A DNA stretch of 64,000 nucleotides from an uncultured virus (IMG/VR IMGVR_UViG_3300028490_000394) (Duplodnaviria; Heunggongvirae; Uroviricota; Caudoviricetes): IMG/VR virus record IMGVR_UViG_3300028490_000394. One strand, written 5' to 3'. Made by a program: the position numbers and the translations under genes. The notes under the pieces are model-generated. The model did no database searches. It saw only the letters and a list, made by a program, of their open reading frames with translations, and had not been told where the DNA came from. Shown here piece by piece: positions 4,959-36,148 of the stretch. The first letter of the stretch is position 1, and the number at the start of each line of letters is the position of its first letter.

Positions 4959-5285
4959 TTATAGTCCTGCTCTGAATTTTAAGTATCCATTTAATAAAGA
5001 TCTTATTTTCTCTGCTCCAACTGGATTTGCTGAATGCACATTGAATTTAAATCCCTCTGGAATTACTATCTCTCCGTCTAATTCTGAATCTACAATCCAT
5101 TTTGCAAAATCAAACCCTGACTTTCTTTCTTTACCGTCTACCATACCTAGGTCATGATCAAATGATATGAAGTCTGGCATTCCATGCTCTCTTACATATG
5201 CTTGCCCTTCCTCACATGTTCTTACTATTACTGTAAACTCTGTTTTTGGAGTTCTTATGTCGTCTATATATAAAGTTCTTTTCAT
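4959..5285 (-). CDS. Cyclic-phosphate processing receiver-like domain protein
   Basis: LYIDDIR, ISFDHDLG, GFD and VHSANP motifs. Confidence 0.8.
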   Translation of the reverse strand: MKRTLYIDDIRTPKTEFTVIVRTCEEGQAYVREHGMPDFISFDHDLGMVDGKERKSGFDFAKWIVDSELDGEIVIPEGFKFNVHSANPVGAEKIRSLLNGYLKFRAGL

Positions 5286-18546: not shown

Positions 18547-18686
18547 GTTGAATTAGCTCAGTTTGGAAGAGTATGTCATAAATAAGGTCACTGGTTCGAA
18601 TCCAGTATTATCCTACGGGGTACTTAGCTCAGTGGTAGAGCGTATTGCAGACAAGGTCAGAGGTTCGATTCCTTTATTTGACACCA
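18547..18686 (+). ncRNA. Double-elbow tRNA fusion RNA, copy 1
   Basis: Acceptor-D-T-(UACG-capped acceptor)-D-T-acceptor-ACCA; no anticodon loop. Confidence 0.8.
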
Positions 18687-18691
18687 TTTAA

Positions 18692-18760
18692 CGAAGTGTT
18701 GCACGAGAGAAGTGCTTGTCCTTTTTTAGGATATGGGTTAAGTCCCCATTACTTCGACCA
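18692..18760 (+). ncRNA. Minimal tRNA-like RNA, oligo-U loop, no variable loop
   Basis: CGAAGTG/TACTTCG+ACCA; three hairpins. Confidence 0.6.
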
Positions 18761-18761
18761 T

Positions 18762-18826
18762 AGAGTATCGCACGAGAGAAGTGCTTGTCCTTTTTTAGGA
18801 TACGGGTTAAATCCCCGTTACTCGTT
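18762..18826 (+). ncRNA. Tandem copy of minimal tRNA-like RNA
   Basis: GCACGAGAGAAGTGCTTGTCCTTTTTTAGGATA identical to previous unit; compensatory T-stem change. Confidence 0.55.
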
Positions 18827-18835
18827 ACAATTTAT

Positions 18836-18961
18836 GTCGACTTAGCTCAGTGGTAGAGCGCGGTGTGGTCACTGGTTCGAATCCAGTAATATCTAACGGG
18901 TATTTAGCTCAGCGGTAGAGCACGAAGAGGGTCATTGGTTCGAATCCAATAGTTGGCACCA
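18836..18961 (+). ncRNA. Double-elbow tRNA fusion RNA, copy 2
   Basis: Same order of arms as 18547..18686; ends ACCA. Confidence 0.8.
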
Positions 18962-19393: not shown

Positions 19394-19463
19394 GTTAATT
19401 TAGCTGAGTTGGATTAGCTGGCCCACTATGGGTTGTACATTGGTTCGAGTCCAATAGTTAGCA
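19394..19463 (+). ncRNA. tRNA-like RNA with shortened anticodon loop
   Basis: GTTAATT/AGTTAGC acceptor; GGCCCACTATGGGTT; TTCGAGT. Confidence 0.6.
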
Positions 19464-19500
19464 CTTGCTGCAAGATCTTAATTGATCTTCAGCCACCTAT

Positions 19501-19621
19501 AGACAATTAGCTCAGTTGGTAGAGTACTTTGACTCTCAGTAGCAAGTTTTGGCCTTTAAACGCCTTAACCCTACTGATTAAGTCTTAGAGGCCAGTGGTT
19601 CAAATCCACTATTGTCTGCCA
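19501..19621 (+). ncRNA. tRNA-like RNA with ~45-nt insertion in anticodon arm
   Basis: Perfect acceptor AGACAAT/ATTGTCT+GCCA, canonical D and T arms; extended stem TCAGTAG/CTACTGA. Confidence 0.75.
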
Positions 19622-20075: not shown

Positions 20076-20190
20076 GTTTATCATTTACTTATGAGAGGCC
20101 ATTTAGCAGAGCAGTCTACACTATGACTAGCTTAGCATTATCGGCGCTAATAAAAGAATTGTAGAGGTTAGAATCCTTGGATAAGCACCA
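20076..20190 (+). ncRNA. Acceptor/T-arm RNA family (115 nt)
   Basis: GTTTATC/GATAAGC+ACCA; TTGTAGAGGTTAGAATCCTT; no D or AC arm consensus. Confidence 0.65.
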
Positions 20191-20196
20191 TACTAT

Positions 20197-20312
20197 GTTG
20201 ACTACGTTCTACTATCGCATTTGCATTATAAATTGAGTATTCCACTAGATACTTTTCTTTTGCAGGCTTTCTTACTAGAGTTGTAGAGGTTGAAATCCTT
20301 GAGTCAGCACCA
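20197..20312 (+). ncRNA. Acceptor/T-arm RNA family (116 nt)
   Basis: GTTGACT/AGTCAGC+ACCA; TTGTAGAGGTTGAAATCCTT. Confidence 0.65.
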
Positions 20313-20579: not shown

Positions 20580-20729
20580 GCGGGAGTAGCTCAGTTCGGT
20601 AGAGCGCTAAGATACTTACTTTCTTTTTTATGTCCTACGAATTCTAGGGTCGCATGTAAATCTTAGTAAGAAATGGTTTGATTCCGTTTTCTTAGAGGTC
20701 ACTGGTTCAAATCCAGTCTCCAGGCTCCA
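20580..20729 (+). ncRNA. tRNA-like RNA with ~75-nt insertion in anticodon arm
   Basis: Canonical D and T arms; CTAAGA/TCTTAG stem encloses hairpins including a second T-like arm. Confidence 0.7.
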
Positions 20730-27901: not shown

Positions 27902-27973
27902 GGTTGTGTAGTTTAGTTGGTTAGAGTGCTCCATTATGGAGAGATAGAGGTTCGAATCCTTTTGCAATCGCCA
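27902..27973 (+). ncRNA. tRNA-like RNA with 3-nt anticodon loop
   Basis: CTCCA-TTA-TGGAG; TTCGAAT; GCCA. Confidence 0.72.
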
Positions 27974-27981
27974 AAATTTAT

Positions 27982-28054
27982 GATTGTGTAGCTTAATTGG
28001 TCAGAATGCTCCCCCGAGGGAGTGACGGAGGTTCGAACCCTTCTGCAACCGCCA
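27982..28054 (+). ncRNA. tRNA-like RNA with 4-nt anticodon loop
   Basis: CTCCC-CCGA-GGGAG; TTCGAAC; GCCA; paralog of previous. Confidence 0.72.
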
Positions 28055-28184: not shown

Positions 28185-28262
28185 TTTAGCCTTCTGTAAT
28201 CCTTGTTTGAATGCTTCGATTACACAGATAACACTCTTGTTTGAATGTTATCTGTACTATAT

Positions 28263-28339
28263 GCCTTTATAGCTCAGTTGGTAGAGCAGGGGATTCTAAA
28301 TCCCTTTGTCGCGAGTTCGAGTCTCGTTAAAGTGCACCA
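28263..28339 (+). tRNA. Amber suppressor tRNA(CTA), Phe-like body
   Basis: GGGGA-TTCTAAA-TCCCT (CTA at 28296-28298); canonical D/T arms; bulge in acceptor; ACCA. Confidence 0.82.
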
Positions 28340-34930: not shown

Positions 34931-36148
34931 TTAATTTAGTTCTTTCAAGTCAAAATTTACTTGAGTTGATCCTTCTAACCATTTTACCATACATTCTTTT
35001 GTTTCAATCTCTTTATCACCCAAGATTATTACACATTCTGCATTTTCTTTATTTGCATTCTTGATTATTGTACTTGGACCTCTTGATTTGTAATCCAGGA
35101 ATACTCTCGAGTTCTTCATATTTCTATAATACATTGCTAGTTTCATTAACGTTGGTAATGCCGCTTCTGTCATTACTCCTATATAAATCCCTCTTCTTTT
35201 TTCACTTGACTCTAGAGTCATTCTTTCTATCACTCTATCTATTCCAATTGCAAACCCTACTGCAGGTCTTGATTTACCACCCATTTCTTTTACTAGATTA
35301 TCATATCTACCACCACCCGCTATTGCTTGGCCCTTAGATACAACCTCGAAGACTAACCCATTATAATAGTCTAATCCTCTCACTAGTTTATTGTTTACTC
35401 TAAACTTAATTTTTAGTTCATTTAAAATATTTTTTGTACTAGTCAGCATGTCCGAACAACTATCACATAAACATGATTCAATTACTGGGGCCCCTTTTAG
35501 TTGGCTTTGACATGTGTCTCTTTTACAGTCTAGCATTCTTAATACATTTGTTTCTTTTCTAACTTCACAATCTTCACACAATTCTAATTCTTCAGTAAAT
35601 GTTCTTAGTTTTTGCTTATACACTGGTAGACACTCTTTACAACCTAATGAGTTTATCTCTATTCCTACAGGGATATTAAGTCTTTCAAATATCATAGATA
35701 GCATTGTGATCATTTGAACGTCTTCTAGGTATGAGGCCTCACCGAAACTTTCTGCACCGAATTGTCTGAATTCTCTATATCTTCCTTTTTGTGGTTGTTC
35801 ATATCTAAACATTGAACCAAAATAGAATTGTCTTGTAGTGAATGGTTGTCTATCTAGTTTGTTTTGAATATATGAACGAACGACACCTGCAGTGCCCTCT
35901 GGTCTTAGTGCTACTTCTTTTCCACCATTATCTGTAAAATCATACATTTCTTTTGTTACCATATCAGAACTGTCTTCTTGATTTCTATTGAATAGAGCTA
36001 GCTCTTCTAGTATAGGTGTTTGAACTCTTCCAAAATTACACCCAGACATTACTTCTGTTGCAACTTTAATGAAAGTATCAAATTTTGTTGAATTTTCACC
36101 TGTAATATCTTTCATGCCTTTTAAAGTTTGTATTTGTTTCATTTTCAT
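34931..36148 (-). CDS. hisS: Histidine--tRNA ligase
   Basis: KEMY, LRPEGTA, FRYEQPQKGRYREF, LVRGLDYY, GGGRYD. Confidence 0.96.
   Translation of the reverse strand: MKMKQIQTLKGMKDITGENSTKFDTFIKVATEVMSGCNFGRVQTPILEELALFNRNQEDSSDMVTKEMYDFTDNGGKEVALRPEGTAGVVRSYIQNKLDRQPFTTRQFYFGSMFRYEQPQKGRYREFRQFGAESFGEASYLEDVQMITMLSMIFERLNIPVGIEINSLGCKECLPVYKQKLRTFTEELELCEDCEVRKETNVLRMLDCKRDTCQSQLKGAPVIESCLCDSCSDMLTSTKNILNELKIKFRVNNKLVRGLDYYNGLVFEVVSKGQAIAGGGRYDNLVKEMGGKSRPAVGFAIGIDRVIERMTLESSEKRRGIYIGVMTEAALPTLMKLAMYYRNMKNSRVFLDYKSRGPSTIIKNANKENAECVIILGDKEIETKECMVKWLEGSTQVNFDLKELN

Follow-up and report, generated by a model that had tools for sequence, protein, structure and literature searches.

RNAs that imitate the shape of tRNA are few (tmRNA, YrlA, viral tRNA-like ends, and mascRNA), and each of them is instructive on how cells recognize this shape. 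We have analyzed a stretch of 64,000 nucleotides (nt) from an uncultured virus of the Caudoviricetes (IMG/VR record IMGVR_UViG_3300028490_000394), hereafter the window, that contains two tRNA-like elements, copy 1 (18547..18686) and copy 2 (18836..18961). In both of them a circularly permuted tRNA-like body stands where the anticodon loop of another tRNA-like body should be. These elements represent a real and recurrent design, with two tRNA-shaped bodies, one free CCA end, and no anticodon.

The described RNA that is most relevant for comparison is the bacterial Y RNA YrlA. Its tRNA-like domain, which contains a T arm, a closed acceptor, and a D arm in this order, folds according to its crystal structure as an L with tertiary contacts of the tRNA type (10.1101/312249), and it is reported to be modified by tRNA enzymes (PMC4201824; 10.1101/312249). 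The YrlA RNA of M. smegmatis, whose closed acceptor has 7 bp, is described as being cut by RNase P and gaining a CCA end, and this acceptor length is named as a determinant for RNase P (Chen et al., 2014; PMC4201824). Most YrlA RNAs are uncleaved, according to 10.1101/312249. The same source cites a model for the origin of YrlA from a dimeric tRNA (Sim and Wolin, 2018), in which YrlA takes its T arm from tRNA 1 and its D arm from tRNA 2 of a tandem transcript, with the closed acceptor arising between the two and the leftover arms turning into the Ro60 stem.

Anatomy of the Two RNAs

Both copies, encoded on the + strand, start with a 7-nt acceptor strand, TA, a D arm, a linker (X), a 5-nt stretch that resembles a variable loop, a T arm, and a second 7-nt strand. 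The rest consists of a loop of 3-4 nt, a 7-nt strand, TA, a D arm, a linker (X'), a variable stretch, a T arm, a 7-nt strand, and ACCA. This order had been claimed in an original prediction made from the letters of the DNA, and the parse is exact at both positions. The first and the last 7-nt strands form an outer acceptor and the two central ones an inner acceptor hairpin, i.e., the acceptors are swapped between the two units.

Copy 1 (140 nt) matches the search pattern and scores 120.6 bits with the covariance model R1 described below. The 5' strand of its outer acceptor, GTTGAAT (18547..18553), forms 7/7 pairs with the 3' strand ATTTGAC (18676-18682), which continues into ACCA (18676..18686), and all seven columns covary across the family. 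D arm 1 (GCTC/AGTTTGGAA/GAGT; 18556..18572), T arm 1 (18590..18606), D arm 2 (18627..18641), and T arm 2 (18659..18675) are helices 2, 3, 5, and 6 of the family alignment, respectively. The inner acceptor ATTATCC-TACG-GGGTACT (18607..18624) has 6/7 pairs, covaries in the family, carries the C(UACG)G loop that had been pointed out, and lies within a sub-threshold Rfam match to YrlA (18560-18666). Linker X (TGTCATAAATA; 18574..18584), a strand at the anticodon-stem position, pairs with linker X' (TATTGCAGACA; 18643..18653). RNAduplex reproduced the proposed pairing of TGTC..AATA with TATT..GACA as 4 bp, a 3x3 internal loop, and 4 bp (-4.8 kcal/mol).

Copy 2 (126 nt; 119.9 bits with R1) keeps the same architecture, and its unconstrained minimum-energy fold contains both the outer and the inner acceptors. 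The strand GTCGACT (18836..18842) forms 7/7 pairs with AGTTGGC (18951-18957), which is followed by ACCA (18951..18961). The inner acceptor hairpin AATATCT-AAC-GGGTATT (18888..18904), also with 7/7 pairs and closed by the loop AAC, falls within another sub-threshold YrlA match (18865-18923, 33.9 bits). The T arms occupy 18871..18887 and 18934..18950. The linkers X (CGGTG; 18861..18865) and X' (CGAAGA; 18923..18928) are short, and their duplex is weak (-1.2 kcal/mol), as had been predicted for this copy.

Several features of both copies are those of a tRNA, i.e., the outer acceptor with 7/7 pairs, the 3' ACCA, and the D and T arms with conserved loops, the T loops being TTCGAAT or TTCGATT and the D loops containing GG. 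The permuted module formed by T arm, loop-closed acceptor, and D arm spans 18590-18641 in copy 1 and 18871-18921 in copy 2. Reading both window copies in any permutation, no anticodon loop is present in either body, and linkers of 5-11 nt take the place of the anticodon arm. ARAGORN called 17 tRNAs in the window, none of them between 18372 and 19120, and no tmRNA in the window. The Rfam tRNA family (RF00005) gave half-tRNA matches alone, with the anticodon arm deleted (28.8-30.7 bits; cut-off 29), and the two matches to YrlA (RF02553; 33.9 and 29.2 bits) are far from its gathering score of 69.

The core signature of the elements (T loop, short gap, D arm, short gap, T loop, and NCCA) has two matches in the window vs. 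0.00 expected from 100 shuffles. If the acceptors are not swapped and each 5' strand is paired with the 3' strand that follows the T arm of the same unit, just 3-4/7 pairs are formed in both window copies, and folds forced into this pairing are about 20-27 kcal/mol worse.

Relatives of the Window RNAs

To collect relatives we have used the pattern "T loop, 19-24 nt, D arm, 18-32 nt, T loop, 11 nt, CCA," which matched 0 sequences in IMG/VR, 12 in genome_contigs, and 12 in metagenome_contigs. Anchored parsing recognized the swapped-acceptor design in 1/12 genome matches (L138, from Lentzea sp.) and in 4/12 metagenome matches (L150, L152, L160, and L161). The remaining matches were a conserved Bacteroidota block, ordinary tRNAs followed by tRNA-likes devoid of an anticodon loop, or rRNA-tRNA operons. 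The covariance model R1 was built from the first seven sequences, and looser IMG/VR patterns scored with it yielded two further members, L375 (80.1 bits) and L435 (91.3 bits). Six such looser patterns returned at least 124, 13, 10, 110, 12, and 100 stretches, and the last pattern 51; among the matches listed, nearly all were ordinary tandem tRNAs, initiator tRNAs, single anticodon-less tRNA-likes, or Y-RNA-like RNAs. With R1, scores of 115-130 bits were obtained for the seeds, and the best ordinary tandem tRNA pair in the loci searched reaches 93.6 bits, above L435 and L375.

Thus, pattern scans and the model applied to genome, metagenome, and viral contigs have added seven RNAs of the same design to the two window copies, and a free NCCA end is encoded in 8/9 members. 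L138 is counted among the nine despite its alternative unswapped fold. The loci L410 and L129, tandem near-duplicates in which swapped and unswapped pairings are equally possible, were excluded, and L172 (46.6 bits; inner loop GCAA), a possible divergent member, was kept outside the counts.

A BLAST search of 50,697 GenBank phage records with the window region and the L138 and L152 elements as queries found no record that covers at least 80% of a query, the matches being ordinary tRNA pieces only. A covariance search of the family of Lentzea found the element in 1/151 genomes, and four other matches of 80-87 bits were ordinary tandem tRNAs. The original prediction had not recognized these RNAs as a described class. 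In agreement with this, no Rfam family reached its gathering score, and literature searches in listings and abstracts show no natural two-bodied tRNA-like RNA, although one might be among the 10,006 candidate viral RNAs listed in the PMC10690425 supplements.

Compensatory Changes and Cognate Pairing

The comparison of the members has shown that the fold is common to a family. The first seven sequences were aligned with MAFFT and the structure was fixed by the D and T anchors, that is, the helices were set by their position beside the D and T motifs and not by a search for pairing. In this alignment, 97.8% of the cells hold standard pairs, 20/32 pairs change on both sides, and 0/500 shuffles reach any of these measures. 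When the 3' partners were slid by 1-3 columns, pairing fell to 38-50%, and RNAalifold returned the same 32 pairs. In the alignment of nine sequences, which was fitted to the model and hence leans towards it, 97.9% of the pair cells are standard, and both-sided changes occur in 7/7 outer and 7/7 inner acceptor pairs. A MAFFT alignment of eight sequences (A3) split three inner strands and was excluded from the counts. Since the helix positions are fixed by the D and T motifs, choosing members with at least 6/7 pairs cannot create the covariation signal; the chance of one 7-mer pair reaching at least 6/7 is about 1.3% by an arithmetic estimate.

The swapped acceptor strands form 6-7/7 pairs with their cognate partners, with a mean of 3.1-3.3 for non-cognate partners and 1-6 pairs for the unswapped arrangement. 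In 6/8 members tested, the energy of the unconstrained minimum-energy fold equals that of the best fold forced to the swapped acceptors, and unconstrained folding of L152, L160, L375, and L435 gives the complete double cloverleaf together with the linker helix.

The linkers are specific to each other as well. Taking the whole linkers of the seven sequences, from D stem to T stem, we have calculated with RNAduplex the energy of each X with every X'. Cognate duplexes have a mean of -10.9 kcal/mol vs. -5.75 for the non-cognate ones, and 3/5040 permutations are as good. The cognate linker ranks first in its row and column in 4/7 cases (L138, L152, L160, and L161), and the L152 linkers form 14 contiguous pairs. 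The duplex always begins one nt past the D stem and extends as far as the variable stretch, which is the position of an anticodon stem. The claim that two cloverleaves are joined through their anticodon stems, with one CCA end and no anticodon, is thus borne out by nine sequences with compensatory changes and cognate-specific linkers, and the homologues do not lack covariation in the inner acceptor, where 7/7 pairs covary.

It might be argued that the elements are decaying tandem tRNA pseudogenes that have this design by accident. Tandem near-identical units without anticodon do exist (L410 and L129) and admit both pairings, the fold of L138 is ambiguous, and the members are rare. But decay would not maintain covariation and cognate linkers, and in the nine diverged sequences the swapped register is still paired (97.9% of the cells), 14/14 acceptor pairs having changed on both sides, and the linkers are cognate-specific. 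We give this explanation hardly any weight.

Genomic Context

The elements are phage-linked. L138 is located in a Lentzea prophage and adjoins host genes; it stands between a serine recombinase gene, about 1.3 kb away, and matches to fibre-like, terminase-nuclease (weak), and portal genes within 7 kb. L375 and L435 belong to IMG/VR viral contigs. The prophage is that of a cultured strain, Lentzea sp. JNUCC 0626, whose record NZ_CP171635.1 carries the element at 4230012-4230154, and therefore the size, ends, partners, and effect of the RNA are directly testable.

The window encodes 17 tRNAs, in dense rows on the same strand, two tRNA(CUA), a histidyl-tRNA synthetase (34934-36148, - strand), and many orphan genes. 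No phage structural genes were recognized by Pfam or PHROGs in the 64-kb window, only genes of accessory type. The amber-suppressor-type tRNA(CUA) genes near the window copies are located at 19394-19464 and 28262-28335, and two more directly follow the L152 member (L152 241-395). The window also encodes NADAR, macro, and GmrSD_N domains, a cREC_REC receiver domain linked to RNA repair (4962-5285, - strand), and at least 11 small open reading frames (ORFs), scattered between 1391 and 57619, with a type IV pilin N-terminal methylation motif.

The dense same-strand tRNA rows of the window, and the location of L150 3 nt past a tRNA-Lys and of L152 10 nt ahead of the two tRNA(CUA) genes, would also fit elements that have no role of their own as free RNAs and serve as processing punctuation, i.e., as sites for RNase P and for 3'-end formation that separate or stabilize neighbouring tRNAs or messages. 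However, a single tRNA-like hairpin would suffice for this purpose, so that the second body, the swapped acceptors, and the linker helix would be left unexplained, and the Lentzea element stands alone, with no adjacent tRNA. We find this explanation very improbable.

A scan for promoters and terminators between 17500 and 21000 gave the same counts as shuffles. The sequencing runs had small matching shares (0.13 for DNA and 0.06 for RNA), and contigs from four runs matched the window by short conserved tRNA pieces from other organisms. Between copies 1 and 2 there are two repeats of a mini-cloverleaf of 69 nt (18692-18760 and approximately 18763-18829), consisting of a 7-bp acceptor, a D-like arm (GCAC/GAGAGAA/GTGC), a U-rich loop at the anticodon position, and a T-like loop (TTAAGTC), with no variable loop. 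The first repeat ends in ACCA (minimum free energy z -2.82), and the mini-cloverleaf is called neither by ARAGORN nor by Rfam. In a DNA contig of low depth from a relative, 18539 is joined to 18829, with 289 bases skipped, and copy 2 is covered with three differences; therefore, this relative lacks copy 1 and both mini-cloverleaves.

Proposed Function and Origin

We propose that phages carry, in each of these elements, the gene of a structured non-coding RNA derived from tRNA. The outer cloverleaf of this RNA has the 7-bp acceptor, a D arm, a T arm, and the ACCA end. The paired linkers X and X' form its "anticodon stem," which, instead of ending in a loop, opens into a second cloverleaf of circularly permuted order (T arm, loop-closed 7-bp acceptor, and D arm). 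The RNA would probably be co-transcribed with neighbouring tRNAs, its outer ends being trimmed as in a tRNA. Such a molecule could not decode, and anticodon nucleases would find in it no anticodon loop as a target. It would still display the acceptor/T-arm helix and, in most members, the corner formed by the D and T loops; the corner-forming GG is present in 14/18 D loops of the nine members. Having no anticodon and displaying this helix, it would most likely imitate tRNA during infection so as to occupy or tether the proteins that bind tRNA, i.e., as a decoy, a sponge, or a tether. Proteins that recognize the acceptor/T helix or the corner, taken in part from PMC4810234, are RNase P, the CCA enzyme, modifiers of the T and D loops, EF-Tu, exonucleases, and tRNA-directed toxins. 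In our judgement, the interpretation as a phage-borne, non-decoding tRNA mimic, with outer ends matured like those of a tRNA and acting as decoy, sponge, or tether, has an even chance of being right.

Several observations weigh against this proposal. L138 can also be folded as two separate truncated tRNAs (-55.5 vs. -60.7 kcal/mol). The members were picked by patterns that already demand the D and T motifs, so these arms say little and carry little weight. Single-sequence folding energies of the window copies are no better than those of shuffles (z 0.70 and -0.75), and therefore the support comes from the anatomy and the relatives and not from energy. L435 has no encoded CCA and ends in TCCT, and 4/18 D loops lack GG (both in L152, and D2 in L150 and L160). 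The linkers of L150 pair weakly and those of copy 2 hardly at all, and the linker helix ranges from about 5 to 14 nt per strand. The original prediction had suggested a bivalent decoy or scaffold for elbow-binding proteins or defence tRNases. Since the length of the helix is variable, the relative position of the bodies is not conserved and a fixed bivalent geometry is unlikely, which speaks for two heads on a loose tether and against a rigid ruler. In addition, no conserved neighbouring protein was found among the window ORFs, 10 ORFs beside L138, and 22 beside other members, and the RNA run gave short conserved tRNA pieces from other organisms and neighbouring DNA-like contigs, with no usable cover of the elements. 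Finally, the role as decoy or tether is argued by analogy only.

A different product would be formed if RNase P cut 5' of the inner acceptor and the upstream piece were trimmed and provided with CCA. The result would be two pieces of about 60-75 nt annealed through acceptors and linkers, a heterodimer whose two CCA ends might be charged. Read from the sequence, the inner acceptors of both window copies contain G3:U70, which is the alanine identity pair. The inner loop of L152 (GCCACTT) corresponds to a discriminator, CCA, and 3 nt, the loops of L150 (ATTATT) and L161 (ATTTTT) resemble ordinary tRNA spacers, and a further candidate of the window (27902-28054) has GCCA past both 3' strands. Moreover, the inner acceptor has in most members the 7 bp named as RNase P determinant (PMC4201824), and since the M. 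smegmatis YrlA with such an acceptor is reported to be cut, the inner hairpin here could be opened. Nevertheless, C(UACG)G in copy 1 and GCAA in L172 are stable tetraloops that suggest a closed hairpin, the loops of 3-4 nt (AAC, GGG, and AAA) give RNase P little leader, CCA is encoded in the inner loop of just 1/9 members, and YrlA RNAs themselves are mostly left uncleaved (10.1101/312249). We consider the two-piece RNA conceivable although rather unlikely.

A more general proposal, which we put forward as unlikely, combines the intact mimic and the opened form. Natural covalent tRNA dimers would constitute a distinct class of phage RNAs that keeps the "dimeric tRNA" stage of the model for the origin of YrlA and provides two-headed look-alikes for the phage-host conflict, some of them intact and others opened by RNase P. 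Intact members, with one CCA end and a closed Y-RNA-like head, may tether two tRNA-binding proteins, and the opened ones may be annealed pairs with two chargeable CCA ends.

Concerning their origin, a tRNA that had lost its anticodon loop could not close its anticodon stem on itself, and a tandem duplication would have allowed two such units to pair across each other. The ambiguous tandem forms L410 and L138 look like an early stage of such a process.

Other tRNA-Like RNAs in the Window and Elsewhere

The candidate at 27902-28054 consists of tandem tRNA-likes whose anticodon stems are capped by loops of 3 and 4 nt, both units ending in GCCA. Its acceptors form 7/7 and 7/7 pairs across the two units, all Watson-Crick at pair 2:71, and contain G.U and A.C within the units; the minimum-energy fold chose the swapped pairing. 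A third two-bodied RNA, of looser design, may be present here.

At 19501-19621 and 20580-20729 there are two tRNA bodies (Rfam 45.6 and 36.7 bits) in which structured inserts of 58 and 79 nt replace the anticodon loop. The first one, with a GCCA end, adopts a cloverleaf fold in which one arm is long (z -2.49). These insert-bearing bodies and the two-bodied RNAs together suggest that the top half of tRNA serves as a carrier of other RNA. Two lone T-arm-like hairpins (GTAGAGGTTaGAATCCTTG type; 20160-20190 and 20280-20312) are followed by 5-6 nt and CACCA, with no recognizable D arm upstream.

The conserved block found with the collection pattern, of about 400 nt and starting with GATGAGnGTTTCTGTATAGCnCCATAGTG, is present in Bacteroidota genomes (L139, L141, L143, and L145-L149) and in metagenome sequences (L154-L156), and it is common to Saprospiraceae, Ferruginibacter, Emticicia, Cyclobacteriaceae, and Schleiferiaceae. 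The GATGAGnGTTTCTGTATAGCnCCATAGTG block contains, in this order, a T arm, a closed hairpin, a D arm, a short linker, a T arm, a CCA-containing hairpin, a D arm, and an anticodon-like arm. Rfam assigned it to no family at gathering score, with sub-threshold YrlA matches of 34-43 bits.

In IMG/VR, the matches of one pattern (L173-L282) include 52 distinct genes for single tRNA-likes of 60-71 nt, with a self-paired acceptor, a D arm, a T arm, and CCA, in which the anticodon arm is absent or reduced to a stub capped by a tetraloop. These single anticodon-arm-less tRNA-likes look like a common, undescribed kind of phage gene. The company of other anticodon-less tRNA-likes in phage tRNA rows hints at an unexplored interference of phages with host tRNA-binding factors.

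Comparison With Known RNAs

YrlA, known from bacteria and some phages, shares with the window RNAs the permuted body of T arm, loop-closed acceptor, and D arm, with a stem at the anticodon-stem position and no anticodon loop. This common order, already pointed out in the original prediction, agrees with the sub-threshold Rfam matches of both copies and with the descriptions of YrlA in PMC4201824 and 10.1101/312249. If the elements were themselves relatives of Y RNAs, the closed body would be a YrlA-type effector module that tethers its protein to the protein bound by the CCA body, with or without Ro60. Apart from the scores (33.9 and 29.2 bits) and the module order, this idea finds some support in viral contigs that carry Y-RNA-like RNAs whose two closed modules are accompanied by a terminal stem (L131). 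But the scores are far under the gathering score, a long terminal stem is missing, 0/8 members tested contain the Ro60-site motif GNCGAAN0-1G, as given in PMC4201824, and no TROVE/Ro60 domain was found in 80 window ORFs of at least 100 aa, in 10 ORFs beside L138, or in 22 beside other members. We regard a Y RNA function of this kind as improbable. The Y-RNA-like RNAs themselves (L131 2990-3150, - strand; L134; L126 2030-2180; and L127, L128, and L133) have two tandem closed modules of T arm, tetraloop hairpin, and D arm, which in L131 are bounded by a long terminal stem.

Unlike YrlA, where the body is attached to a long Ro60-binding stem and there is no free CCA, the window RNAs combine it with a tRNA body of ordinary order, a 7-bp acceptor, and ACCA, their 5' and 3' ends forming this acceptor and not a long stem. 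The 7-bp closed acceptor hairpin resembles that of M. smegmatis YrlA, from which they differ by having stable tetraloops among their inner loops. YrlA is the closest known relative, and membership fails on the score, on the Ro60 stem and motif, and on the linkage to Ro60.

Other known RNAs are more distant. The stable RNAs of species 1 and 2 of phage T4 (rnaC and rnaD; 139 and 119 nt) are similar in that they lie in a phage tRNA cluster and have no function assigned by annotation. The T4 sequences have neither the double D/T set nor the inner closed acceptor, and show at most one T-arm-like 3' end, so they are not the same thing. In tmRNA, a tRNA-like domain with acceptor and T arm is combined with other RNA that replaces the anticodon arm, but the window RNAs contain neither a tag reading frame nor pseudoknots. 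Circularly permuted tRNA genes of algae and archaea give a canonical tRNA with an anticodon, whereas no anticodon loop is present in either body here. The single anticodon-arm-less tRNA-likes of viruses share the acceptor, the D arm, the short linker, the T arm, and CCA, as well as the lack of an anticodon loop, but their acceptor is self-paired, and the window RNAs are two units whose acceptors and linkers pair across. A phage RNA that nests one tRNA body in another, without anticodon and with compensatory changes in unrelated phages, would be a new route for building a tRNA mimic.

The layout of the window RNAs is that of the dimeric-tRNA model of YrlA, itself an evolutionary proposal, with the first D arm and the second T arm still present. 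These RNAs provide a concrete sequence example for the proposed origin of Y RNAs from tandem tRNA transcripts, and the two-bodied RNAs, of which we found no such description, would be living examples of the intermediate stage of that model.

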